DNA of 57,122 nucleotides from a virus (Duplodnaviria > Caudoviricetes). Of the stretch, positions 10,905 through 57,122 are shown piece by piece. A program made the position numbers and the translations under genes. Every line of letters begins with the position of its first letter. Within the stretch, counting starts at the first letter, position 1. The notes under the pieces are model-generated. The model searched no databases. It had not been told where the DNA came from and was given only the letters and a program-made list of their open reading frames with translations. Where the stretch lies: positions 1-57,122 of the IMG/VR virus record IMGVR_UViG_3300005537_000315; one strand, 5' to 3'.

Positions 10905-11999
10905 CTATTTCCTGTAAAACGACCCTTCGAATCCGTCCGCTCCTAAAAGCAGCCCCGGTGCCCAATCAATGGGCGTGCTCATAATCTCGATCATTTCTTC
11001 TAGACCAAGACTAAACGGGTCTTTTGGCGTCAGCGTGATCCCTTCGTCGTGAACGTGGCCCACGCACGGCATATCACGCTCTTCGAAGTCCAGCAGCTTG
11101 ACAGCTAGAACGTCTCTCGCGAACCCTTGGACAATATTCTCGAAAATCTTTCCCCCATGAGTGTCGACGACGTCCCAATCTCCTTTCAAGTTCTCTTGGT
11201 GGTAATGCAGCGCTGGACGAGAAACGGGATTGCCATCCTTGTTTGTCCACGGCATTTCTTTTTCCGCGACGAACGCGTCCATATAGTGCAGCTTGCGTCC
11301 GCTCGGCAAGTGAATGCGCATCATCGGCTGACGACCTGCGATATTCAAACGGTCGATTAAAATACACCCGTTGGGACCGACGCGACGCTTTGTGTTCACC
11401 GCTTCGGGCTGCATCACGTCCAGCACGGCCTCTTCTAGCTGAACCCAGATTCCTTTCGGCTCACCGTTATATCCGTTGCCGCAGATTTCTCCGTACGATT
11501 TGCGAAAGACGTCGGTGACCATGTGGGCGTCTTTCATTTCCATATCGACGCCTTGACCGTAAGCAAATCCCCACAAGCCTGTTCTGATGCGGTCGTAAAT
11601 TCTCGGGCACGCGCATTTTGGCGATTTCTTTTTGGCCTCGGAGCACCCCTCTGCGTGCTCGACGTATGATGCCGTCCCGTTGCCCCATCCGCCGCCGCCC
11701 ATACGATAAATCGATCCCAACACGCCAATCTTTCCAAACTGGCGCTTGATTTTTGCTTCGGCCTTCGCCTGTTTCCCGTTAACGCCTTCTTTGTCAAGAA
11801 ACAGTCTTTCGTACGTGTACTGCGGATAAATCTTCGTTGCAAACGCGATGTATGAATCCTTCCCGTTACGACGGTACTTTCCCAAAGGATCGGTGTATGG
11901 ACGAAACACTTCGTGCAGCGAATGGCACTGAGCCACATAGGCTCCGACCCTGGTTTCGATTGCGTTCAGGTCGCATACGTTTAGGCGTTGCTCAGTCAT
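10905..11999 (-). CDS. DNA polymerase family A, C-terminal (palm/fingers) half
   Basis: Motif A DLNAIETRV, motif B RQFGKIGVLGSIY, ENIVQGFARD, motif C HVHDE. Confidence 0.92.
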   Translation of the reverse strand: MTEQRLNVCDLNAIETRVGAYVAQCHSLHEVFRPYTDPLGKYRRNGKDSYIAFATKIYPQYTYERLFLDKEGVNGKQAKAEAKIKRQFGKIGVLGSIYRMGGGGWGNGTASYVEHAEGCSEAKKKSPKCACPRIYDRIRTGLWGFAYGQGVDMEMKDAHMVTDVFRKSYGEICGNGYNGEPKGIWVQLEEAVLDVMQPEAVNTKRRVGPNGCILIDRLNIAGRQPMMRIHLPSGRKLHYMDAFVAEKEMPWTNKDGNPVSRPALHYHQENLKGDWDVVDTHGGKIFENIVQGFARDVLAVKLLDFEERDMPCVGHVHDEGITLTPKDPFSLGLEEMIEIMSTPIDWAPGLLLGADGFEGSFYRK

Positions 12000-12556
12000 A
12001 AACAGATCCTTTTGAGAAAGTCGCTAACTAACTTATCGCACGTTTCGGGAAAAAAGTTTTTAAAGAAGCGCAATCGTTGCCCTGGAGTGAGCTTCGAGAT
12101 CATGCCTTCCGCATGATTGCACGACGGATGACAAAAACCAAAAACGTAGCCTGTCTTGTGATCGTGATGAAGATGTGGGGTTCTCTTTGTTTTCCAGTCC
12201 AGCACTCCTCCGCAACCTACACAGAACTTACTCGTTTTCATAAGATGCAAAAGTTTTTCCGGTGATATGTTCGGTATAACGTGCCCTCTTCGCTTTGCCT
12301 GTGTGTTAAACAACAGCAGCCTATTTTTCGCGAAACTAAAAGGCAAACATTTAAAACACCACACGCGACGAATGCCGTGTGCGCAAATGCTGCCGCCACC
12401 GCAGTCTTTGCATCCGCTTCTTTGCTTTTTGTGCTGGCACGTTTGGCTTCCGCCGCACTCAACGCATTGAATTTTTATTTTCTTATGTTCACAAGTTGCA
12501 GAGCCGCCACATTCGACACAGCGGCTCTTTCTTCTACCGTGCTTGCATTCACTCAT
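11996..12556 (-). CDS. endonuclease VII-like homing endonuclease inserted in the polymerase gene
   Basis: Repeated CxHxxxxxxCxxCGG zinc modules, then HLHHDHKTGYVFGFCHPSCN. Confidence 0.85.
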   Translation of the reverse strand: MSECKHGRRKSRCVECGGSATCEHKKIKIQCVECGGSQTCQHKKQRSGCKDCGGGSICAHGIRRVWCFKCLPFSFAKNRLLLFNTQAKRRGHVIPNISPEKLLHLMKTSKFCVGCGGVLDWKTKRTPHLHHDHKTGYVFGFCHPSCNHAEGMISKLTPGQRLRFFKNFFPETCDKLVSDFLKRICL

Positions 12557-13790
12557 GCTGTGCACTCCCAGGAGCGACGAAAACCGTTCTGATTACAGAT
12601 TTAATCACTTCAAGAACGTTTCCATACTTTTCAACAATTCCTTGGTAGTCTCTTCTGTAAATCAATCTGCGTGCATCTTTAAGGGTGTCTATGTCTTCAA
12701 AATCAGCGCCTTTAACCTTTTTTGGTTGAGAAGGCCGAGGCATATTGTGCAATTGAACGGATGATCCTGACCATCGTCCGCATCTACTGCTGCCTAGATA
12801 TATAAATTGATTTCTTAAACGCCCATCGGGACATAAATGTCTCTTTACGGCATCAAGTTTGGTGTAGCTGGTTGATCCAGCCGACAACCTCTCTTCTAGA
12901 ACCGCTCGGCATTCCGGTGTCATCGTGTACTGTATGTCGCCTAGAGCGGCTTCGACGAACGCTTTATTCAGCGTGTTGTACGGATAACCACGACTGCGTA
13001 CCCACGGTAATAGTTGATCACGAGAGTTTGAATTTTCCAAACCTGTGATGGCGTTTTGTTTTTCTAACGCGATACGTTTCGCTTCCGTCGCGATCCACAA
13101 CGCGGCTTCGACAAACTCAAGATCAACAGGCATGCCTCGATCATTAACGTTTTGATCGAACAACCACACGCGACGCTCAAAATCAGACATCGGCCACGCT
13201 TGCAGAATTTCTTCGCGGCGAAGCAGTTCTTCCTCGGCATCCACGTCTCGCATGCAATACGCGCCAAATTGCGACCACTCCGCAGGATGAGAATTCCAAT
13301 CGTTGAAATATGTGCGAGGGTCGGGATTTTTCTTGGTTTTCTTTTCGACTATGGGTTCACAGAAGAGATTAATGAGGGCTGCGCCGCGCTTATCTTTGGC
13401 TAGGTGCACGGGAACGTCTAGGATAGAGCACATCGACTCCAAGTCAGGAGGCAAGCACAAATAGCGGCCCGCCACCTGGGGGTCGATGAATCTATCCGGG
13501 GCAATCTTTTTGCCTAGCTGAAACCATAGAACATAGCGCTCGAACGCGCTGTTAAACGCTTCGATCTGCACGTTCGGATCGTCCAGAGCGTCGTTAAGGT
13601 CTTTAGGCATCGGGCCTTCATGCGGCATCCACAAACGACGACACGGCCCTGTGTCGCCTGGGAGTTTGTAGCCCTGCATCAAAACCGAGGTGGTCGGGTG
13701 CGTCATATAATTAAATAAGCCGACACCCGTGCTGCCGCCGATTAAGACGTGGCTACGTGTTTCGAAGTCCGTTTTAAGAACTTGAGTCAT
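12549..13790 (-). CDS. DNA polymerase family A, N-terminal (3'-5' exonuclease/thumb) half
   Basis: DFET, AFNSAFER, YCMRDV, GRWSGSSVQLHNMPR. It ends at IRTVFVAP, just before motif A. Confidence 0.92.
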   Translation of the reverse strand: MTQVLKTDFETRSHVLIGGSTGVGLFNYMTHPTTSVLMQGYKLPGDTGPCRRLWMPHEGPMPKDLNDALDDPNVQIEAFNSAFERYVLWFQLGKKIAPDRFIDPQVAGRYLCLPPDLESMCSILDVPVHLAKDKRGAALINLFCEPIVEKKTKKNPDPRTYFNDWNSHPAEWSQFGAYCMRDVDAEEELLRREEILQAWPMSDFERRVWLFDQNVNDRGMPVDLEFVEAALWIATEAKRIALEKQNAITGLENSNSRDQLLPWVRSRGYPYNTLNKAFVEAALGDIQYTMTPECRAVLEERLSAGSTSYTKLDAVKRHLCPDGRLRNQFIYLGSSRCGRWSGSSVQLHNMPRPSQPKKVKGADFEDIDTLKDARRLIYRRDYQGIVEKYGNVLEVIKSVIRTVFVAPGSAQHE

Positions 13791-26903: not shown

Positions 26904-27405
26904 GCTGCCTACCTTTCGAGTAGGCCACCTAGCTCCCCTTCACCTTCGCAGGTCGTTTCTAAGGCAGTGATAACGGCTCGGTCGAACCCTTTGCCCTGAT
27001 TCACGCTGGCTCACAGCCCGTGTTCCCATTGTGACGACTGTGCATTTCTGCCTTTTGCGTCACGGGTAACGTTTTCTCGGGTGACATGCCTCTGCGCTCA
27101 GTCGCCGTGGTTCTCTACTACTTCCGACGAACTCACATCGAGTGTGAGCGCTTGCCGGAAAATCGGTTTTGGTGAGTAGCCCGAGGTAGGCGCGGATGAG
27201 TCGCCTCGTTCTCAGTGTTATGCTCCCCCCGCCAGGATTCGAACCTAGGTCTTCCGCGTAGTGTTTGCAAGTGTCTAGGGCACTTTGGTGAAGACCTAGA
27301 AGCTTCACCGCATCACGTACGGACGTTCTAAACCGCTAAACTACGGGGGGCCAGTTTGAATGGCTCCCTAACACTCCTGAGCCACTCACCAAAACCAATT
27401 TACAA
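26900..27405 (-). ncRNA. candidate large structured RNA containing a tRNA-like domain (27224-27350)
   Basis: 7-bp acceptor stem, D arm, TTCGAAT T-loop, 23-bp enclosing helix, many further hairpins, no credible ORF. Confidence 0.7.
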
Positions 27406-31164: not shown

Positions 31165-32037
31165 CTGAGACAGCCGAAAAGCGAGCGTATCAGATTGAGA
31201 CGATGAGATTTGAGACGTCTTACGAGCTTGAGACACAGACTAGTCGACTTGAGACGTCACGTCAGGACGCGACAAATAGTGAGACAAGCACGTAACTCCA
31301 ACAAAATAAAGGGTATATAAGTTTCGTGAATTGGAAACAAGGCAACGGGTCATCCAGGCGAGAGGTGCGCGAGTGCAATAATTACACAAAATCACGCAAT
31401 AATTTTCGCTTTTTGTTCTACGATGGAGAATAATTAGTTCTCCAGCGCTTCGCAAACCCGCGCAAGTTGTTGATTCGGCGTGAGTTAAGCTTCGCAATCG
31501 TATTCTGCAACGCGCAACGCAGGCAGCAACCGATCCGCGCTGAGGTCGCGCAACGCAACGAGGCGAACCTTGGGCGAAGCAATTGCTGTTGAAAACAAAG
31601 GAGTTAGCCTTTGGTCGTTCAGTTGCTCCCCTAGCAATTCGGTCGCCAAAGTTCAATGGGGCCGGGGGGTGGCGGGTCGTACCCGCCCCCGACGCCTTGA
31701 GGCTCAGGCCGACGTCGACGTGGCTCACCCGCACCTTTCCCTAACAGTGACCGTCACGCCAGAAGTCCCCTGTTATCAACTATTTAAAATCGGTGCCATG
31801 CTTCATCTGTTTTAGTGGAGGGCTACAACCCTCCTGGCAGTACTGCGACCTCCCTGTCGATACCAACGCAAACTCGCAAATGCCTCGTCTCAAAATGAGA
31901 TGAGAAACAGGGATTTCTCGACACAGGCCAGTCGTACTCGCCCCAGGGGCGTCTCATTGTGAGACGACCTCAACGTGGCTCATCTCAATCTGAGACGGGT
32001 GGGACACGTCACGTCTCAAAATGAGACAGTAGTCTCG
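31165..32037. repeat. TGAGAC / GTCTCA-N3-TGAGAC repeat clusters in the non-coding strand-switch region
   Basis: About six direct TGAGAC copies at 31165-31290, and four palindromic or near-palindromic copies at 31887-32030. Confidence 0.85.
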
Positions 32038-32065: not shown

Positions 32066-32332
32066 ATGGTTCCTGATCCGATTTTTATCGAAGACGGCGA
32101 CACGATTGTTGTGATTGCGAAGACTTTTGGCCCGACAGTATCTGATTCAGCCGATGCGCACCCGTACGTCTCTAAAGCTTATCGCGTTGTTGCTGATCGT
32201 TCTGGGCCTACCTTGGCTCTTGTACCGCTCGGCGAGAGAGCGACTCGGGTGTCTCAAGTTGAGATTGACCAGTTCGAAGCGCGGAAGAATCGCGAGAGTG
32301 TCGTCCAAAATAATGTAACGAGTGGATCGTGA
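32066..32332 (+). CDS. hypothetical protein
   Basis: First ORF of the right arm, AGGTG RBS. Confidence 0.6.
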   Translation: MVPDPIFIEDGDTIVVIAKTFGPTVSDSADAHPYVSKAYRVVADRSGPTLALVPLGERATRVSQVEIDQFEARKNRESVVQNNVTSGS

Positions 32333-32628
32333 ATCGCCGATCATTTCTAAAGTGGCTTGGTATTGGAGTTTCCGCCGCAGTGGCGGTCGCCCCCAGGGCC
32401 GTCGAAGCGGTGTGCAGTTGTACGCGTGGCTCAAAGCCACTAATAGGCACCGCTGAAGAGTGGTGTGACATTCATGGAACCCCGCTCGTCGAATGCAGTC
32501 CTGTCGTTAAGAACTATTACGAGTACGCCAGCTTTTCTGAGTTCGCGAATTGCGAAGCCATTGATGAGTGCGTCATGAAAGTGGCTGAAGAGTTGGGTCG
32601 CTCCGCAGGTGAAGCAGCAGGCTGGTGA
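32329..32628 (+). CDS. Tat-signal-like protein with a capsid-like C-terminal segment
   Basis: MNRRSFLK twin-arginine motif. The C-terminus aligns to this phage's major capsid protein. Confidence 0.65.
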   Translation: MNRRSFLKWLGIGVSAAVAVAPRAVEAVCSCTRGSKPLIGTAEEWCDIHGTPLVECSPVVKNYYEYASFSEFANCEAIDECVMKVAEELGRSAGEAAGW

Positions 32629-32840: not shown

Positions 32841-33113
32841 ATGGCATCGACAGTCACAGGAAGTTTGGGCGCAGCGAACAACGGTGCGATTGTCAGTGCC
32901 ATCAAGTTGCTGAACAACGTTCCCGCTGGTGTCATAACGTCCGACGTGGTAGCGAGCGGAAACTTTTCTCTAAGCGGACTCGCCGCTGGTACGTATTAAA
33001 TCAAGGCCGTGCTTGCCAACGGAAACATTTCTAGGCAGGCGGGTTCCGACATCACTAACGTTTTGTTCGTGAACACGATCACGGTCGACGGATCGACGAC
33101 TTACAAACTGTAA
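32841..33113 (+). pseudogene. small beta-sandwich (carboxypeptidase-regulatory-like) gene with in-frame TAA
   Basis: GAGGAG RBS. ...SGNFSLSGLAAGTY*IKAVLANG... has its stop at 32997-32999, inside the conserved GxYxIxA motif. Confidence 0.6.
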
Positions 33114-33176
33114 GCGGATCGAGTCCATAAATTTTGTAAGCAGTACTACAACTTAATCTGTGTCTAGGAGAAACTT

Positions 33177-33449
33177 ATGTCCCAAGTCGCTTCTCAGGCC
33201 CTTAGTCTTAATGTTGCTGCTGTGCCCGTATTGCAGATTACAACCACGTCCTTACCGGATGCCGTTGAATTTTCTGCTTACTCTCAGCAGCTTCAAGCAA
33301 CTGGTGGAACGGCACCGTACTTCTGGTCTTTGGCTTCTGGCGCGTTGCCAGCGGGTTTGTCGTTATCTCAGAACGGTACTTTGCAAGGTATTCCGACAGC
33401 GTCGGGGCCGTTCAATTTCACGGTTCACGTTCAAGATTCTGGTGCTTAA
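33177..33449 (+). CDS. putative Ig (He_PIG-type) domain protein
   Basis: LQITTTSLP...YSQQLQATGGTAPYFWSLASGALPAGLSLS..GTLQGIPTASGPFNFTVHVQDS. Confidence 0.85.
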   Translation: MSQVASQALSLNVAAVPVLQITTTSLPDAVEFSAYSQQLQATGGTAPYFWSLASGALPAGLSLSQNGTLQGIPTASGPFNFTVHVQDSGA

Positions 33450-35851: not shown

Positions 35852-35928
35852 GGCGGATGAGGCGAAACAGGTGACGCGCTCGACTGTGAATCGGGCTAGA
35901 GTGGGTTCGAGTCCCATCGTCCGCCCCA
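35852..35928 (+). tRNA. tRNA-His(GTG)
   Basis: Cloverleaf, G-1, CCA. Confidence 0.92.
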
Positions 35929-35949
35929 AAACATTTTTGAAGAAAGCTC

Positions 35950-35978
35950 TTGACAGAATTCCAAATCCATGATAGGCT
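35950..35978 (+). promoter_or_regulatory. second promoter in the array
   Basis: TTGACA-17-TAGGCT. Confidence 0.65.
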
Positions 35979-36001
35979 TCTTTTGAGAGTGAGGGCTGCT
36001 C

Positions 36002-36148
36002 ATGAAAAAGATTGCAGTCACGGATTCGTTGAAAGACCTGAAGTTGAAGGTCGGTGATAAAGTGGAGTTGTTCAAGAGGGTCTGGCAGTACGGCGAAACG
36101 ACCGATAAGAACGGCAAGGTCTCATCGCGCTATCTCGACCCGCTCTAA
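36002..36148 (+). CDS. small hypothetical protein
   Basis: GAGG RBS, MKKIAVTDSLKDLKLKVGD. Confidence 0.5.
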   Translation: MKKIAVTDSLKDLKLKVGDKVELFKRVWQYGETTDKNGKVSSRYLDPL

Positions 36149-36215
36149 AGTTTTTACGAGTTCTCAACTGGCGGCCCTTGCTGGAGGTTTAAATCCTTCA
36201 ACCCCGACCAATTTT

Positions 36216-36353
36216 ATGATTTGTCAACGTTGTCATCAAGAAAAAGCAACAGTCGTGCCTCGTCTCAACCCGTACGATGAAGATGTACGTGGGGAACAGA
36301 ACGAAGAGATTCTTTGCGACGGATGCTACGACGCGTTGTGTGACGAGATTTAA
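36216..36353 (+). CDS. small zinc-finger protein
   Basis: CQRC...CDGC. Confidence 0.55.
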   Translation: MICQRCHQEKATVVPRLNPYDEDVRGEQNEEILCDGCYDALCDEI

Positions 36354-36354
36354 T

Positions 36355-36439
36355 CCGCTGCTGGTGGAACGGCAGACACGTCAGTCTTAGAAACTGATGC
36401 CCTTGTGGCGTGGGAGTTCGAATCTCTCGCGGCGGACCA
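36355..36439 (+). tRNA. tRNA-Leu(TAG)
   Basis: Cloverleaf with V arm, CCA. Confidence 0.92.
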
Positions 36440-36445
36440 AGTTTT

Positions 36446-36531
36446 GCGCGTGTGGCGGAATGGCATACGCAGGGGACTTAAAACCCCCGGCCCGAAAGGG
36501 ATTGTGAGTTCGACTCTCGCCTAGCGCACCA
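36446..36531 (+). tRNA. tRNA-Leu(TAA)
   Basis: Cloverleaf, two acceptor mismatches. Confidence 0.88.
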
Positions 36532-36625
36532 AGTTTTACGAGCGTGATTGGCAGACGTGCCAGTCCTCGGCCATCGACGGATGGTTTGAGTTTAAGCCCA
36601 GCACGCAACACTGGCTGGCAGATCA

Positions 36626-36724
36626 GACGGAGACCTTGGTTCGAATCCAAGTTGGTTCAATGAGCGTGGTCGGCCTTGCATGAGGCGCGTCTCGAACCTG
36701 TCGTCTAGAGGATAGGACGCCGTC
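36626..36724 (+). ncRNA. circularly permuted tRNA-like RNA (YrlA-like topology)
   Basis: T arm precedes D arm, and GACGG/CCGTC closes the structure. Confidence 0.7.
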
Positions 36725-36732
36725 AAAAATTT

Positions 36733-36807
36733 AGCCCTGTCGTTCAACGGACAGGACACACGGCTTCTACCCGTGTAATCTCGGTTCGAATCCGAGTGGG
36801 GCTACCA
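36733..36807 (+). tRNA. tRNA-Arg(TCT)
   Basis: Cloverleaf, CCA. Confidence 0.92.
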
Positions 36808-36968
36808 ATCTTCCCGTGTCGTGGGATACGTCGGCACATATCATGATTCGCTACGCGTTGTTCCGTGGCGAGAGGAAACAGACTTTCTCGATCCGTCTCT
36901 TTGGAATCGCATATACGGATCGAACGACGCGATACGGCAACACGAAGAGCGCGTCGTTGGTTTTAAGT

Positions 36969-37043
36969 GGACTGTTCGTTCAACGGATAGGATAGTGGTC
37001 TACGAAACCACGGATAGAGGTTCGAATCCTCTACGGTCTACCA
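36969..37043 (+). tRNA. tRNA-Arg(ACG)
   Basis: Cloverleaf, CCA. Confidence 0.92.
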
Positions 37044-37049
37044 GATTTT

Positions 37050-37124
37050 GCACCTGTCGTTCAATGTACAGGACTCGGCCCTCCGAAGGCCGTGATCTGG
37101 GTTAGATTCCCAGTGGGTGCTCCA
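37050..37124 (+). tRNA. tRNA-Arg(CCG)
   Basis: Cloverleaf, variant T-loop TTAGATT. Confidence 0.88.
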
Positions 37125-37127
37125 GGT

Positions 37128-37189
37128 TTGATGCATCAAGGGAAGGGATGCCCTAACACCCCAACCCACTCTTTAGGGAGAGTGAGATG
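37128..37189 (+). promoter_or_regulatory. kissing-loop leader of HNH gene (copy 1)
   Basis: Loops CCCTAA/TTAGGG, SD inside hairpin 2. Confidence 0.8.
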
Positions 37190-37567
37190 AAAATCTGTAG
37201 TCGATGTATTTTGTCGAAACACGAGAAAGATTTTTATACCCAAAGCGGCAGGTCGACAAAAATGTCTTGGTGTAAGGCCTGTTTGAAAGATTACAGGTCT
37301 GAGACTCAACTCGCTAATAAAAAGAGGGCAGTTGAATTATTGGGTGGGAAATGCGTTCGCTGTGGGTATTCGAAATGTTTGGGTGCCTTAGAATTTCATC
37401 ACGTAAACCCAGCAGACAAGTCCACGTACACGGGACTTAAAAACAGAAGTTGGAACACGATATCGGAAGAAATTAAAAAGTGTATTCTTCTATGTGCTAA
37501 TTGTCACAGAGAAGAGGAAGAGAAATTAAGGCCACGTAGCGCAGCGGACAGCGCAACTCTTTCCTAA
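37187..37567 (+). CDS. HNH endonuclease
   Basis: CVRCGY...LEFHH...EEIKKCILLCANCHRE. Confidence 0.9.
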   Translation: MKICSRCILSKHEKDFYTQSGRSTKMSWCKACLKDYRSETQLANKKRAVELLGGKCVRCGYSKCLGALEFHHVNPADKSTYTGLKNRSWNTISEEIKKCILLCANCHREEEEKLRPRSAADSATLS

Positions 37568-37605
37568 AGAGTGGGTCGTGAGTTCGAATCTCACCGAGGC
37601 CTCCA
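37530..37605 (+). tRNA. tRNA-Arg(CCT)
   Basis: Cloverleaf, overlapped by the HNH 3' end. Confidence 0.9.
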
Positions 37606-37718
37606 GATTTGAGCGGTGGGTAGCGAGTGGCTAACCAGTGATTCGGGCCGGAGTAGGGCGTGAAACTCGCCAACGTGTCGCGCAGCGGACAAGGCTCAGG
37701 CGCTCAAAAAGTTTACGT

Positions 37719-37805
37719 GCCTTTGTGGTGGAACAGGCAGACGCGCCGCACTCAAAACGCGGTGGGCTAACGCCCGTGTCAGTTCGAGTCTGACCAGAGG
37801 CACCA
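37719..37805 (+). tRNA. tRNA-Leu(CAA)
   Basis: Cloverleaf with V arm, CCA. Confidence 0.92.
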
Positions 37806-37811
37806 AAGTTT

Positions 37812-37886
37812 GCACAGATCGACAAGTGGCTAAGTCAATCGTCTGCAAAACGATTACCGTGAGTTCGAATCTCACTCTGTGCTCCA
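37812..37886 (+). tRNA. tRNA-Cys(GCA)
   Basis: Cloverleaf, U73, CCA. Confidence 0.92.
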
Positions 37887-37888
37887 AG

Positions 37889-38209
37889 TTGGTTGTCCAG
37901 ATGTTCGCGAAGGTCCGATCCCTTCGAGGAAGTTCAGGACACGAGTCAACACCGTGCCGTGGAAGTTGCGGGACGCGTAAGCGTACGGGTAAGCCTCGGT
38001 AGTGGACTGGGTAACGCACTCGAAAGAGTCGAGCACCAGCACCACTCATTGGAGCCGAGACAATCCACACGAGTGCAACTGCAAATAGGCGCAGAGGACT
38101 TTGTTGGCGTTCAGTGACAGCGCGGGTAGCAGGCTTCGCCTTCGGGCGACTAGAGAGGAATGAACGTCACCGCGTAAGCGGAAACAGAATCCTGGCTACG
38201 GACGACCAA
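37889..38209 (+). ncRNA. rnpB: RNase P RNA (bacterial type)
   Basis: P1 GGTTGTCC/GGACGACC, P2 ATGTTC/GAACGT, P3 GAAGG/CCTTC. CR-I GAGGAAGTTCAGGA pairs with CR-V ACAGAATCCTGGCTA to form P4 with a bulged U. Also GTGCAACTGCAAATAGG and AGAGGAATGA. Confidence 0.9.
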
Positions 38210-38210
38210 A

Positions 38211-38582
38211 GTGATGGGCAAGAAAGAAGATCAAGCTAAGTGGTATAGAAACCACCGAGAAAAGCACATGGAAAACTGTGCTGCTCGAAAAGCAGAACAG
38301 ATTGTTCGAAATCAGCAAATGATTATCGACTATTTGTTGCAGCATCCTTGCCTCGATTGTGGTGAAACAGATATAATGGTTCTTCAATTTGACCACGTTC
38401 GCGGAGAGAAGAGAGACGACATGAGTCGTTTGCTTTCGTTCTCAGAGAAAACGGTTCGTGAAGAAATTGAGAAATGTGAAGTACGTTGTGCTAATTGTCA
38501 TCAAAGAAAGACGGCAGAACGAAAACAAAGCTATAAGGTTCTATGGGTCGCAGGTGTTAGCGGCAACATTCCTCCCTCTTAA
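38211..38582 (+). CDS. HNH endonuclease
   Basis: HPCLDCGE...LQFDHVRG...EEIEKCEVRCANCH. Confidence 0.9.
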   Translation: MMGKKEDQAKWYRNHREKHMENCAARKAEQIVRNQQMIIDYLLQHPCLDCGETDIMVLQFDHVRGEKRDDMSRLLSFSEKTVREEIEKCEVRCANCHQRKTAERKQSYKVLWVAGVSGNIPPS

Positions 38583-38620
38583 GGAGCGAGTTCCGAGTTC
38601 AAGTCTCGGGCAACCCACCA
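38545..38620 (+). tRNA. tRNA-Lys(CTT)
   Basis: Cloverleaf, atypical positions 8-9, overlapped by HNH. Confidence 0.82.
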
Positions 38621-38623
38621 AGT

Positions 38624-38672
38624 TTTGTCAACTTATAGGTTGACGTTTGACAACTGTTTGTCAACTTATAAG
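38624..38672. repeat. TTTGTCAACTTATA direct/inverted mini-repeat spacer
   Basis: Two direct copies plus inverted GTTGAC and TTGACAA. Confidence 0.75.
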
Positions 38673-38680
38673 TGTACAGT

Positions 38681-38755
38681 GGGCTGCGGATGCGAGCGGC
38701 AGCAATGGGGCCTTTTAAGCCCAATGTCCGAGTTCGAGCCTCGGGCGGCCCACCA
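38681..38755 (+). tRNA. tRNA-Lys(TTT)
   Basis: Cloverleaf, atypical D region. Confidence 0.82.
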
Positions 38756-38763
38756 AAAGTTTT

Positions 38764-38839
38764 AGCCGACTAGCAAACTGGTCGTATGCGCCTCTCCTAC
38801 AAAGAGGTGGGCACGGTTCGATTCCGTGGTTGGCTACCA
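38764..38839 (+). tRNA. tRNA-Val(TAC)
   Basis: Cloverleaf, C at position 33. Confidence 0.88.
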
Positions 38840-38929
38840 AGTTCTGTGGGAAGAGTGACGGGATGTCCCAGATCGTATGCTGGGGTGCTGCCCCGTAATG
38901 GGTAACCATCCCCCGTCTTCTCAGCCTTT

Positions 38930-39019
38930 AGTCGGTAGCATGGGTATGCAGCGCGGCCTTATAAACCGCGAGCACCCGATTAGTGCGCCGAGTCGGTTCG
39001 AGTCCGACACCGACTACCA
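38930..39019 (+). tRNA. non-canonical tRNA with TAT anticodon (Ile?) and long V arm
   Basis: AGTCGGT/ACCGACT acceptor, tiny D arm, CTTATAA loop, GCAC/GTGC V arm, CCA. Confidence 0.75.
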
Positions 39020-39026
39020 AGTTTGT

Positions 39027-39100
39027 GGGGTTATCGTTTAGTGGCAGGACGCTCGGTTCTCAGCCGAATAGCCGGGGTTCGAATCCCCGTAGCCCTACCA
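39027..39100 (+). tRNA. tRNA-Glu(CTC)
   Basis: Cloverleaf, CCA. Confidence 0.9.
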
Positions 39101-39109
39101 AGTTTCAGC

Positions 39110-39185
39110 GGAGTTATCAGCTAGCGGCCTAGGCTGCCACCCTTTCAAGGTGGTCACATCGGTTCGAATCCGATTAGCTCTGCCA
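39110..39185 (+). tRNA. tRNA-Glu(TTC)
   Basis: Cloverleaf, CCA. Confidence 0.92.
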
Positions 39186-39200
39186 ATTTTAGGAGTGAAC

Positions 39201-39296
39201 ATGAGCGGACAGCTTGCAGTTATTTTCGGAGCGATTGCCGCAGCGGTGGCACTCGTGGTATACTTGCTGAACAAGTACGTGACGAAGAGCAAGTAA
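39201..39296 (+). CDS. small single-pass membrane peptide
   Basis: AGGAG RBS, MSGQLAVIFGAIAAAVALVVYLLNKYVTKSK. Confidence 0.55.
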   Translation: MSGQLAVIFGAIAAAVALVVYLLNKYVTKSK

Positions 39297-39452
39297 TGAG
39301 TTTTCAAGATTGGTTAGAGAAGCATCCGAAGATTCAAAACGTTGTTGAGTTTTTTGTTTTCATCGCGGAAGTGACCGCGTCGCCGTTCATCGACTTGTAT
39401 AATCGAGTCGCCGTGAAGTTCGGCTGGAAGGTCTATCAGTAAAAGTTTTCGT

Positions 39453-39528
39453 GGGCAGTTAGTAGCAACTGGGAAAACGCCTCGCTTGCACCGAGGAGTT
39501 GAGGGTTCGAATCCGTCACCGTCCACCA
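39453..39528 (+). tRNA. tRNA-Ala(TGC)
   Basis: Cloverleaf with G3:U70. Confidence 0.92.
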
Positions 39529-39538
39529 AATTTTATGT

Positions 39539-39612
39539 AGTCGGTTCGTTCAACGGTAGGACCGTTGCCTGATTAGCGACTGATGAGGGTTCGATTCCTT
39601 CACCGACTACCA
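39539..39612 (+). tRNA. tRNA-Ile(GAT)
   Basis: Cloverleaf, U at position 37. Confidence 0.88.
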
Positions 39613-39629
39613 AGTTTTTAGGAGAAGAG

Positions 39630-39830
39630 ATGGCCGCAAATTCAAACATTCCAGCAGTGAACGCAAAGAATCTTGCGCTGTCAAACGATACGGCGCTGGA
39701 TGTGAAAGCGATTGAATTGGAAGATACGGAGATCGTGAAGGCATTGGTGGCTAACCCGAATCGCCCTGACGCTGGAAAGCTGAACGCAAGACGCGGCTCG
39801 ATAGCAACGGCCAAAAAGAATCACGAATAA
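39630..39830 (+). CDS. hypothetical protein
   Basis: AGGAG RBS. Confidence 0.6.
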   Translation: MAANSNIPAVNAKNLALSNDTALDVKAIELEDTEIVKALVANPNRPDAGKLNARRGSIATAKKNHE

Positions 39831-39843
39831 GAAAGATTTTAAT

Positions 39844-39921
39844 TGCGGGTTAGCACTTCTGGTGAAGTCACCTGTCTCATAAGCAGGTCTAGGCTGGGTT
39901 CGATTCCCGCATCCGCAACCA
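39844..39921 (+). tRNA. tRNA-Met(CAT)
   Basis: Cloverleaf, CTCATAA loop. Initiator, elongator or Ile2 identity is unresolved. Confidence 0.85.
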
Positions 39922-40096
39922 TCTTGACACATCGGTTTCGCTGGTGAGACGCTAAGGTCGTCGACGACCAAGCTGGCGAGACTTTATCGGTTGAAGCGCG
40001 GGTTGCTTATAACAATCTGGGCATTCATAGCCTGACCAGCCCTCATTGAAAAGGCGTTCGGTTCGAAACGTTTTCCTTGGGGAATACAGTTTTTGA

Positions 40097-40170
40097 GCGG
40101 GTGTGGTGTAACGGTAGCACCTCATTATTCCAAGTTGAGTGTCGGGGTTCGAGTCCCCGTACCCGCTCCA
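40097..40170 (+). tRNA. tRNA-Gly(TCC)
   Basis: GCGGG acceptor, U73, weak anticodon stem. Confidence 0.85.
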
Positions 40171-40257
40171 AGTTCGAACGCACACGTTCCTTGCCGTCGT
40201 ACGGCGGTTGTGTGGTAACCAGTTGAAGAGGACGATAACACTGGTGTAAATTTCTGA

Positions 40258-40331
40258 GCGAGTTTGGCGTAGTGGTAGCGTGGAACCTTGCCAAGGTTCA
40301 GGCGCGGTTTCGATTACCGCAATTCGCTCCA
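40258..40331 (+). tRNA. tRNA-Gly(GCC)
   Basis: Cloverleaf, CCA. Confidence 0.92.
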
Positions 40332-40339
40332 AGTTTTGA

Positions 40340-40415
40340 GCATGGTTCGTCTAGCGGTTTAGGACATCCGGCTTGTACCCGGAGAACGTAAGTTCGAATC
40401 TTACACTTTGCTCCA
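40340..40415 (+). tRNA. tRNA-Thr(TGT)
   Basis: Cloverleaf, CCA. Confidence 0.9.
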
Positions 40416-40423
40416 AGGTTTAT

Positions 40424-40672
40424 ATGCCCAACGAATTTCTTTACTCCATAGCCCATAAGGCTCGTAAAGGCCCAAAGATAACGATGGGCAAAGGCATGCA
40501 GAGAGTTGAAACGCCTGACCCGATGCGCGGCGTGACTGATCCAGCGAAGTTGTTGAAGTCGGACACCCAGCGCATAGATAGGAACGTCGGCACTCCTGAT
40601 TTGATGTGGCAGAGGTCTCCCGCGACAGGGTCTTCGTCCGATGCAGCGGGACTGGAAATAAAAAAGATTTGA
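40424..40672 (+). CDS. hypothetical protein
   Basis: ORF exactly fills the gap between two tRNAs. Confidence 0.55.
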   Translation: MPNEFLYSIAHKARKGPKITMGKGMQRVETPDPMRGVTDPAKLLKSDTQRIDRNVGTPDLMWQRSPATGSSSDAAGLEIKKI

Positions 40673-40746
40673 GCACTGTTGATCTAATGGCATGATGCGG
40701 CCCTCGTAGCGCCGACGCCGTGGTTCGATTCCACGACGGTGCTCCA
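40673..40746 (+). tRNA. tRNA-Thr(CGT)
   Basis: Cloverleaf, CCA. Confidence 0.88.
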
Positions 40747-40753
40747 AGTTTGA

Positions 40754-40827
40754 GCAGGGATGATGTAATGGTAGCCTAGTTCCTTGGTAAGGAACCTGTC
40801 CGGGTTCGAGTCCCGGTTTCTGCTCCA
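40754..40827 (+). tRNA. tRNA-Thr(GGT)
   Basis: Cloverleaf, CCA. Confidence 0.9.
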
Positions 40828-56354: not shown

Positions 56355-57122
56355 ATGAGCGGGCCAACACCATCAGCTTCAAACGTAGGAAACGTACTCA
56401 CCGCGCAGGCGATCCTTTTCGACAAGGAATTGATCCCGAACCTAAAGGGTGAGACCGATGCATTTGTGACCGTCGCTGAACGTCGTGTTCAGGGACTTCA
56501 CATGGGCATCAACCGTCAGTTCTTCCAGTACAACACCTTGGTTGGTGACACTGCGCAAGCTGCTGACGGAAACGTGGGCGCTCCTGAAGTCGTGAGCCAG
56601 ATCACTGCACCTGCAACCGTGGGTGAGTGGAACAACTACACGAACTTCTCGGCGTTCGCAATTGCGGCGTCGATTGACGAATTGGTAGGCAACTCGGCAG
56701 TTGAGTTGGGCTATCAAGCAGGTCAGTCGATCAGCGAGTTGTACAGCGCGGTTGCTGACTCGGCTTCGACAGTCGACGGCAACGTGAGCCAGAACGGGTT
56801 GCTTTCTTCGCCTTTCACGCTAGACCTAGCCACGGTTCGTGAAATGAAGCAGCAGCTTGTGTCGATTGACGTACTGCCTTGCAAGAAGGGCATGTACTAC
56901 GGGGTTATCAGCCCGAACGTGTTGGGAGACATCTACAACGCAACGACTGTTAACAACTCGATCATCGACAACTGGAAGCACACGGAAAGTGGACAGAAGA
57001 AGTTCGACGAAATGGCTGGCAGCGACCAGACCAAGGAAATCGTTCTTCCTGGCACGAACATCCTCTTCCGTCAGACCCCGTTCGTGACCAAGACCGCCAA
57101 CTTCAGCGGCACCAAGACTGGT
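56355..57122 (+). CDS. major capsid protein (N4-gp56-like, truncated by window end)
   Basis: Manual translation MSGPTPSASNVGN...QFFQYNTL...GEWNNYTNFSAFAIAASIDELVGNSAVELGYQAGQSI...YYGVISPNVLGDI, open to the window end. Confidence 0.85.
   Translation, partial: MSGPTPSASNVGNVLTAQAILFDKELIPNLKGETDAFVTVAERRVQGLHMGINRQFFQYNTLVGDTAQAADGNVGAPEVVSQITAPATVGEWNNYTNFSAFAIAASIDELVGNSAVELGYQAGQSISELYSAVADSASTVDGNVSQNGLLSSPFTLDLATVREMKQQLVSIDVLPCKKGMYYGVISPNVLGDIYNATTVNNSIIDNWKHTESGQKKFDEMAGSDQTKEIVLPGTNILFRQTPFVTKTANFSGTKTG

Follow-up and report, generated by a model that had tools for sequence, protein, structure and literature searches.

We describe a family of phage-borne microproteins in which a leader of the twin-arginine translocation (Tat) type is joined to a homolog of a short segment of the major capsid protein. 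The family is large and unannotated, and the combination of leader and capsid tail has not previously been described. The member that we analyzed is encoded by a small accessory open reading frame (ORF), 32329..32628 on the plus strand, in a 57,122-nucleotide stretch of soil phage DNA (IMG/VR record IMGVR_UViG_3300005537_000315; this whole stretch is called the window below). The gene begins with GTG and comprises 99 codons plus a stop, giving a 99-amino-acid product. Judged from its sequence, this product is an accessory precursor of ~100 amino acids built from three modules, namely, a Tat leader, a swappable middle, and a tail of ~50 residues that is homologous to the capsid protein. The original prediction, which was made from the letters of the window, had named this ORF, quoted both ends of its product, and placed it among the first genes of its arm. 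The ORF list and the sequence agree with the coordinates and with both ends, and only one ORF of the plus arm precedes the gene.

Homology of the tail to the capsid protein

The original prediction had aligned the end of the microprotein, without gaps, to the capsid protein encoded at 56355. This alignment was reproduced in a single BLASTP comparison, in which the tail matched capsid residues 94-125 without gaps and with 15 of 32 positions identical (E = 2e-6). Shuffling statistics, a check proposed together with the prediction, gave the same answer: the Smith-Waterman score was 67, compared to 27.1 ± 4.5 for shuffled sequences, and 0 of 2000 shuffles scored as high. When all 599 reading frames of the window were searched, the capsid was the top non-self match of the microprotein (67 versus 42 for the next match). 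For shuffled microproteins, the best score over all frames was 45.8 on average (sd 6.0), with a maximum of 68 among 60 shuffles. Corrected for the whole-window search, the single pair is only modestly significant.

Comparisons between profiles carry the case for homology. Using hhalign, we matched a 19-member microprotein alignment to a 30-member capsid alignment over 49 columns (probability 97.7%, E = 1.4e-12), and a second microprotein subgroup matched capsid residues 87-138 over 52 columns (98.2%, E = 4e-14). The tail is thus a true homolog of the capsid segment. The microprotein profile recovered the capsid block in phage Tunturi_3 (E = 9.2e-12), and a profile of 114 microproteins recovered it in 12 of 12 further capsid-bearing contigs (~70 bits, E ~1e-20 to 1e-21). 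In the opposite direction, the capsid profile recovered the microprotein tail in all four contigs tested (4/4; E = 1.5e-12 to 4.2e-7). Furthermore, 3 of the 114 microproteins matched the curated N4-gp56 capsid model TIGR04387 directly. The shared region corresponds to capsid residues 87-138, with the addition of residues 251-270 in one subgroup, and with 99 amino acids against ~341 the microprotein does not take in the whole capsid fold.

The pattern of conservation is also shared. In an alignment of 46 capsids that reaches down to 30% identity, 16 columns are invariant, and three of these (S99, D108, and E117) fall inside the block. The most conserved columns of the tail are the most conserved columns of the capsid block, these polar positions included, and the three residues are kept at 82-96% in tails. 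In our judgment, the profile evidence settles the homology of tail and capsid at the level of sequence. A chance resemblance, or an ORF that is not a real gene, could draw on the modest significance of the single pair in the window-wide search, where the best shuffle scored 68 against the observed 67. Against such a reading stand the profile-profile matches, the reciprocal profile matches in independent genomes, a conserved family of 183 cluster representatives, and conserved synteny. We regard it as already refuted, with next to no probability left to it.

Identity of the capsid gene

On five lines of evidence, the ORF at 56355 encodes the major capsid (head) protein. It matches phrog_1357 (E = 2.3e-7), and it shares 36% identity with the protein annotated as the major head protein in Tunturiibacter phage Tunturi_3. 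Its neighbors in the ESM Atlas, at 0.97-0.98, lie in Phage_capsid_3/4 and N4-gp56 capsid clusters, and the gene follows terminase, portal, and a scaffold-like gene. A distant tie to TIGR04387 (N4-gp56) was obtained through family member P0345 (E = 4.9e-11, under the curated cutoff). Full-length genes of 341 amino acids, 76-77% identical to the window capsid, are present in the near-complete genomes G001 and G002. Tunturi_3 is a cultured podovirus with a Tunturiibacter host, according to passages of PMC11924767.

Structural information was sought by several routes. Pfam returned no family for full-length capsids even at E <= 10. Sequence searches of solved structures with two capsid profiles (A3 and A7), the distant capsid P0345, and a microprotein profile (A2) returned no capsid or otherwise meaningful match. 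An AlphaFold2 model of the capsid, built from a 30-sequence alignment, had a predicted local distance difference test score (pLDDT) of 32.8 and was unusable; the block was predicted to be helical there. The microprotein model reached a pLDDT of 56.6, and at this low confidence, the tail was predicted to be helical at residues 69-73 and 76-97; we used the model for helix propensity only. A complex prediction for the G001 capsid and the mature part of the G001 microprotein gave a score of 0.00, the fold of the partner being uncertain, and bears on binding in neither direction. Capsid proteins of the HK97 class usually run from an N-arm through an E-loop and the long "spine" helix of the P domain to later strands that return to the P-domain sheet. 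Going by that order, capsid pieces 87-138 and 251-270 would be elements of the P domain, and the block at 87-138 may include the spine helix.

One irregularity concerns the capsid gene in other contigs. In many related contigs (L063, L067, L068, L070, L100-L104, L110, L112-L116, and others), the match to the capsid gene extends over ~1230-1480 nucleotides, compared to 1023 nucleotides for the same 341 residues. These long matches suggest that the capsid gene carries an insertion in those contigs, whether an intron or an element of another kind.

The Tat-type leader

The N terminus of the window microprotein was originally read as a Tat signal, and this holds for the type of leader. The sequence N2 R3 R4 S5 F6 L7 K8 contains the twin-arginine core of Tat signals, and the window protein scored 17.3 bits against the curated model TIGR01409 (cutoff, 16.7) and 18.1 bits against PF10518 (cutoff, 22.7). 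Residues R3, R4, F6, L7, G11, and G13 are invariant in 19 relatives, and the arginine pair occupies positions 3-4 in 99 of 116 members of a set that had been preselected for it. The consensus of these 116 leaders consists of an x-R-R-x-F-L-K core, a short Gly/Ala-rich h-region, and an Ala-Pro end. The uncharged stretch has a median length of 16 residues and a mean hydropathy of 1.8; it is rich in Gly, Ala, and Val and usually ends in Ala-Pro. For the microprotein of G001, the Pfam model PF10518 scored above its cutoff (23.0 versus 22.7) and TIGR01409 scored below (16.4 versus 16.7). At E <= 0.01, PF10518 matched 53 and TIGR01409 matched 71 of the 114 members, a set preselected for the RR motif. 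As we read the sequence, V-E-A at residues 25-27 fits a small-x-small pattern and is a possible signal-peptidase site; many members have no clear site.

Within the window, only the microprotein carries such a leader. We also searched one genome per bacterial species with the leader pattern and found 9 loci, with no prophage copy among them. Eight were host proteins that share the leader only, and inspection of the ninth (L034) identified an unrelated Tat-leader protein of 171 amino acids.

The same type of leader occurs on unrelated small proteins of other phages. These proteins were seen at 4176-4879 of L004, 178-495 of L005, 6001-6573 of L021/L022, and 2908-3333 of L023. Two Tat-leader proteins stand in tandem in L004, and in L023/L024, one lies between terminase-like and portal-like genes. 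Tat-leader proteins may therefore be a wider phage theme.

A family with swappable middles

Our first search recovered 16 homologs besides the microprotein itself at E <= 0.01, down to 43% identity. An exhaustive profile search, with clusters defined at 50% identity, extended the family to 183 cluster representatives at E <= 0.001, 82 of them at E <= 1e-10, and most are 75-130 amino acids long. Of the 147 representatives that were newly listed, 125 have an RR leader by a simple pattern, 97 have the tail motif, and 84 combine the two; the remainder are mostly truncated entries or capsid proteins. The fusion of leader and tail, whose conservation in related phages had been proposed as a check on the original prediction, is conserved.

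Between leader and tail lies a variable middle, of which at least four types recur: the Cys/His module of the window protein, "CxC..RSFWEGxC," "DPWCGS," and "YSTYVMGQDA." Some members have almost no middle. In 17 close relatives with the window-type middle, C29 and H49 are invariant and C31 and C46 nearly so. By inspection of the alignment, C75, a cysteine inside the tail, recurs in most close relatives. The approximate mature part of the protein is acidic, with a median net charge of -5 and a negative charge in 97% of 114 members.

One of the middles is itself related to the capsid. The "YSTYVMGQDA" type matched capsid residues 251-270 (probability 88%, E = 3.1e-6). The passenger of at least one subgroup is therefore a mosaic that joins two pieces of the capsid in permuted order, with 251-270 placed ahead of the tail. 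Such a passenger would amount to a miniature, permuted capsid set of one or more strands plus a long helix. We rejected a capsid origin for the other middles, which served as negative controls in hhalign (E = 0.64 for the window Cys module, 0.75 for "RSFW," and 0.3 for "DPWCGS").

A third capsid-like piece was tentatively recognized in a variant from G014 (probability 79% and 63%), on the strength of one sequence whose locus is apparently split into two ORFs. At this locus (L137, minus strand), an ORF of 101 amino acids consists of the leader and two capsid-like strands followed by a stop, and the next frame holds the Cys module and a tail without a leader. Either the gene is disrupted here, or the locus represents a form with two genes.

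Databases offered no annotation for these proteins. No family of known function in Pfam, NCBIfam, PHROGs, or PADLOC covers the microprotein beyond its leader. In PHROGs, the window microprotein had no match, and that of G001 matched only a family of unknown function (E = 6.5e-4). The microprotein was found in none of 50,697 GenBank phage records, and every neighbor of it in the ESM Atlas was below 0.9. A search of the full-text literature, which left subscription journals and supplementary files outside its range, found nothing comparable.

Distribution and genome context

The window represents 54% of a phage genome of ~100 kb. Among sequencing runs, the only one listed as containing it was a soil metagenome, which may be the source of the window, and no RNA run was listed. 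Its minus arm is the replication module. On the plus arm, small unknown genes come first, a tRNA array and several homing endonucleases follow, and terminase, portal, a scaffold-like gene, and the capsid close the arm. The head genes start ~17 kb downstream of the microprotein gene, which is surrounded by small accessory ORFs and precedes the tRNA array.

In closer relatives, the microprotein gene directly follows a gene for a coiled-coil protein of 206-299 amino acids, with overlapping stop and start codons. The window retains only the last 88 codons of this coiled-coil gene, as judged by eye from synteny and C-terminal similarity, and the GTG start of the microprotein gene shares 4 nucleotides with the TGA stop of that upstream ORF. 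The coiled-coil partner had weak matches in PHROGs and PADLOC, and those in PADLOC (E = 1.4e-4 to 9.3e-3) were to the coiled-coil parts of SMC-like proteins. We considered the partner as a relative of scaffold proteins and rejected this possibility (best BLASTP E = 0.28). PADLOC-DB contained 0 families for the microprotein, in its window and G001 versions, and for four neighboring ORFs.

To follow the gene across genomes, we located microprotein loci with a subgroup alignment, the alignment of the wide family (A4) being too diverse. The capsid family of the window was present in 7 of the 7 contigs that had been found through the microprotein. Of 12 further contigs that carry the capsid gene, 3 had a separate microprotein; the four near-complete contigs in this group had none. 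The near-complete genomes G001 and G002 carry the microprotein, and four of the six near-complete relatives with the same capsid family lack it. The coiled-coil gene is missing from the same four genomes and is present in G010. A scan for the leader at the DNA level, run without requiring a start codon (microprotein genes start with GTG), found one copy of the pattern in G001, one in G002, and none in G011, G012, or G017, which are three of the four near-complete genomes without the microprotein. Phage Tunturi_3 has no microprotein, though the matching capsid block is present. Because it is missing from near-complete relatives with the same capsid, the microprotein is an accessory cassette that travels with the coiled-coil gene, not a core head gene.

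Proposed function and its alternatives

Beyond its modules, homologies, family, accessory status, and position, whatever we say about the function of the microprotein we infer. The original prediction had offered three functions: a membrane-targeted decoy, an assembly modulator, or a superinfection-exclusion factor. Our best reading, still tentative, is that it could be a Tat-targeted free copy of a capsid surface that serves phage-phage or phage-host conflict, not capsid construction, a real possibility in our view that stops short of being probable. The precursor would be expressed from the start of the arm whose later genes encode terminase, portal, and capsid. Its leader would take it to the host Tat translocase and, in the window protein, would probably be cut after V-E-A at residue 27. 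An acidic passenger of ~70 amino acids would end up on the outer side of the cytoplasmic membrane or in the periplasm. There, it would present the most conserved surface of the capsid as a free copy and would bind something that normally recognizes this surface.

The version that we prefer places the action of the passenger in the periplasm, where its targets would be related phages entering the cell. Virion proteins that lie stored along the capsid wall and are ejected on infection might, for instance, be bound by it, leading to superinfection exclusion or sensing. This version takes the larger part of our tentative belief, and taken by itself it is unlikely. The smaller part goes to a decoy that is directed to the membrane and engages a host capsid sensor, which is more unlikely. 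Slightly below it, we would place the most specific form of the proposal. In that form, a Tat-exported miniature of the part of the capsid wall that stores internal virion proteins would trap or detect, in the periplasm of an infected cell, the internal proteins that superinfecting relatives eject, and it would thereby block their DNA entry or signal superinfection. Capsid mimicry would then operate beyond the cytoplasm; at that level of detail, the proposal is quite improbable.

Several observations weigh against an exported copy of the capsid surface. The capsid block is nearly identical across seven genomes, and the tails differ from the block and from one another; recent gene conversion is therefore ruled out. 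In a tree of the 47-column block with 157 rows, 40 of 46 capsid blocks formed one clade (Shimodaira-Hasegawa-like approximate likelihood ratio test [SH-aLRT], 91) with no microprotein within it, and six distant N4-like capsids fell outside this main capsid clade. Two label changes suffice on the tree, and a single split of capsids versus microproteins was not rejected (approximately unbiased test, p-AU = 0.607). One old capture would be compatible with the tree, which is as much as such a short block allows. It appears that the tails have long evolved as a lineage of their own and were not copied recently from the resident capsid. The original prediction had spoken of a copy of the capsid segment; the homology in that claim stands, and the sense of a recent copy does not. 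An old lineage of tails fits a fold that was co-opted for another purpose equally as well as it fits mimicry. Moreover, N113, Y120, and Q124 are 93-98% conserved in capsids, yet they are not kept in tails. The window protein scored below the PF10518 cutoff (18.1 versus 22.7 bits), and export is itself a prediction from the leader. The position of the block as a spine helix is a supposition, as is its exposure on the inner or outer face of the capsid. Finally, every capsid-surface partner known to us is cytoplasmic, and export and capsid mimicry pull in opposite ways.

In the main rival explanation, capsid ancestry is purely historical. The passenger could be an exapted mini-fold that is exported by Tat for an unrelated periplasmic job, such as envelope modification, lysis control, or metal binding, and that keeps its capsid-like residues since the unit of strand plus helix needs them to fold. 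We consider this explanation somewhat unlikely. The age of the tail lineage in the tree is in keeping with it, as is the failure of tails to follow the resident capsid. Conserved apolar positions recur every 3-4 residues, a spacing that would put them on the same side of a helix. One subgroup carries, ahead of the tail, a capsid strand that might pack against it; in the window's subgroup, the Cys/His module stands in the place of that strand, with C75 recurrent in most close relatives. However, after divergence into at least 183 clusters, the profile still matches capsid blocks at ~70 bits; the polar capsid invariants S99, D108, and E117 are largely retained; and the capsid family was present in all seven microprotein contigs, which were themselves ascertained through the microprotein. 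Together, these three observations suggest a continuing link with capsids. A second rival would be a capsid-assembly factor, with the tail binding capsid or scaffold in the cytoplasm and the leader either tethering assembly to the membrane or exporting a bound partner by Tat "hitch-hiking." The tail keeps residues that are invariant in capsids, and the gene shares its strand and arm with terminase, portal, the scaffold-like gene, and the capsid. Bacteria have small Tat-leader subunits that carry a larger partner, and an ESM Atlas neighbor of the microprotein at 0.79, the small subunit of a periplasmic [Fe] hydrogenase, provides a lead in this direction. Yet this capsid can be built without the microprotein and without its coiled-coil partner, since four near-complete relatives that share the capsid family have neither. 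This absence from four of six near-complete relatives argues against an essential role in assembly and fits an accessory conflict gene. The cultured phage Tunturi_3 lacks the microprotein as well, and the distance of the gene from the head genes, amid accessory ORFs, also counts against assembly, which we think very unlikely. The remaining probability falls to functions that we have not considered.

If our preferred reading of a Tat-targeted capsid copy is true, phages would have made a separately exported effector from a fragment of their most conserved structural protein, a form of self-mimicry of a kind not described for capsid proteins. For the unannotated phage microproteins of environmental metagenomes, a family of at least 183 sequence clusters, this would be the first clue. 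Lytic-type phages would be seen to use Tat, an exporter of folded proteins, for very small passengers, and a natural, minimal capsid subdomain would be available for studies of folding and assembly. Tunturi_3, a cultured phage with a matching capsid block and no microprotein, makes the function testable by supplying the gene in trans.

Comparison with known systems

The leader resembles bacterial Tat signal peptides (TIGR01409 and PF10518) in its core, h-region, and Ala-Pro end, and the leader pattern also retrieves ordinary host Tat-leader proteins. The difference is that here the leader is found on a lytic-type phage and precedes a capsid-derived passenger of ~50-100 amino acids, whose export is predicted from sequence. 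Capsid proteins of the N4-gp56 type and HK97 class (TIGR04387; Phage_capsid_3/4) share a segment with the tail and, in one case, with the middle. Unlike them, the microprotein has only 50-70 of ~341 residues, permuted and behind an export signal. With so few capsid residues, it cannot form the shell fold and is therefore a homolog of a capsid fragment, not a capsid protein.

Imm, Sp, and RI of phage T4 are small phage proteins of the envelope that act in superinfection exclusion or lysis inhibition. In our working model, the microprotein would be like them in that it is small and accessory, has an N-terminal export or anchor signal, and acts in the envelope against incoming phages. The T4 exclusion systems are mentioned in passages of PMC13128918. 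In sequence, the microprotein is not similar to them: it had no PHROGs family of known function, no Pfam family beyond the Tat signal, and no match in the 50,697 GenBank phage records. To our knowledge, none of the three uses Tat or derives from a capsid protein.

Capsid segments are known to trigger abortive infection, as with the Gol peptide of T4 and Lit, and capsid protein is sensed by CapRel. In these systems, a short conserved stretch of the major capsid protein is recognized by a partner, as we propose for the microprotein. However, that stretch acts within the capsid protein and activates a host sensor, whereas the microprotein stands alone. We know of no other stand-alone, phage-encoded copy of a capsid segment that carries an export signal. 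Phage satellites also encode capsid homologs or alternative scaffolds that interfere with capsid assembly, including CpmA and CpmB of Staphylococcus aureus pathogenicity islands (SaPI) and Ccm of phage-inducible chromosomal islands (PICI). Like the microprotein, these are extra capsid-related proteins on mobile elements. They are cytoplasmic, satellite-encoded, and either full capsid folds or scaffold mimics, whereas here the phage itself encodes a capsid fragment of ~50 amino acids with an export signal.

Features of the window and neighboring elements

The coordinates of the microprotein gene, its modules, and the related features of the window are collected in Table 1. The C-terminal end of the window tail is shorter than in most relatives.

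Table 1. Positions of the microprotein, its modules, and associated genes in the window
Feature	Position	Strand	Description and basis
Microprotein gene	32329..32628	+	99 codons plus stop, GTG start; ORF list and homologs
Tat-type leader, aa 1-27	32329..32409	+	R3 R4, F6 L7, Gly/Ala-rich h-region, V-E-A at 25-27
Cys/His-rich middle, aa 28-57	32410..32499	+	C29, C31, C46, H49, C56; confined to the window's subgroup
Capsid-derived tail, aa 58-99	32500..32625	+	Homologous to capsid residues ~87-128; BLASTP, hhalign, column match
Upstream ORF, 88 aa	32066..32332	+	C-terminal part of the coiled-coil protein of relatives
Major capsid protein gene	56355..57122	+	First 256 of ~341 codons, cut by the end of the window
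Capsid block, aa 87-138	56613..56768	+	Homologous to the microprotein tail; hhalign, column comparison

We found no sigma-70-like promoter or intrinsic terminator between 30700 and 33200. A palindromic motif of 15 nucleotides (CGTCTCAAAATGAGA type) occurs in six copies between 31186 and 32264 of the window, and four such palindromes at 31886-32026 lie immediately upstream of the first ORF of the plus arm. These may be operators or phage-specific promoter sites. In the same part of the window (31583-31744) and in the upstream regions of L003, L006, L017, and L019, spurious ORFs yield a recurrent "FAPPAIRGPN"-like peptide. This recurrence points to a conserved noncoding DNA element that is sometimes present in two copies.

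Downstream of the microprotein gene, short ORFs at 32841-33449 matched CarboxypepD_reg-like (E = 0.0019, below cutoff) and He_PIG (E = 1.9e-12) families. With their carbohydrate-binding or Ig-type fragments, these ORFs may be pieces of one surface-type protein. The tRNA array, at 35853-40824 on the plus strand, contains 18 Rfam tRNA matches with HNH endonuclease ORFs interleaved. One further tRNA match lies on the minus strand (27224-27350) and is unusually long, at 127 nucleotides. Also on the minus strand, at 10908-13790, DNA polymerase is apparently carried in two ORFs (12552-13790 and 10908-11999) with an EndoVII-like ORF between them (11999-12565). At least 10 ORFs of the HNH or EndoVII type are spread over both arms of the window.

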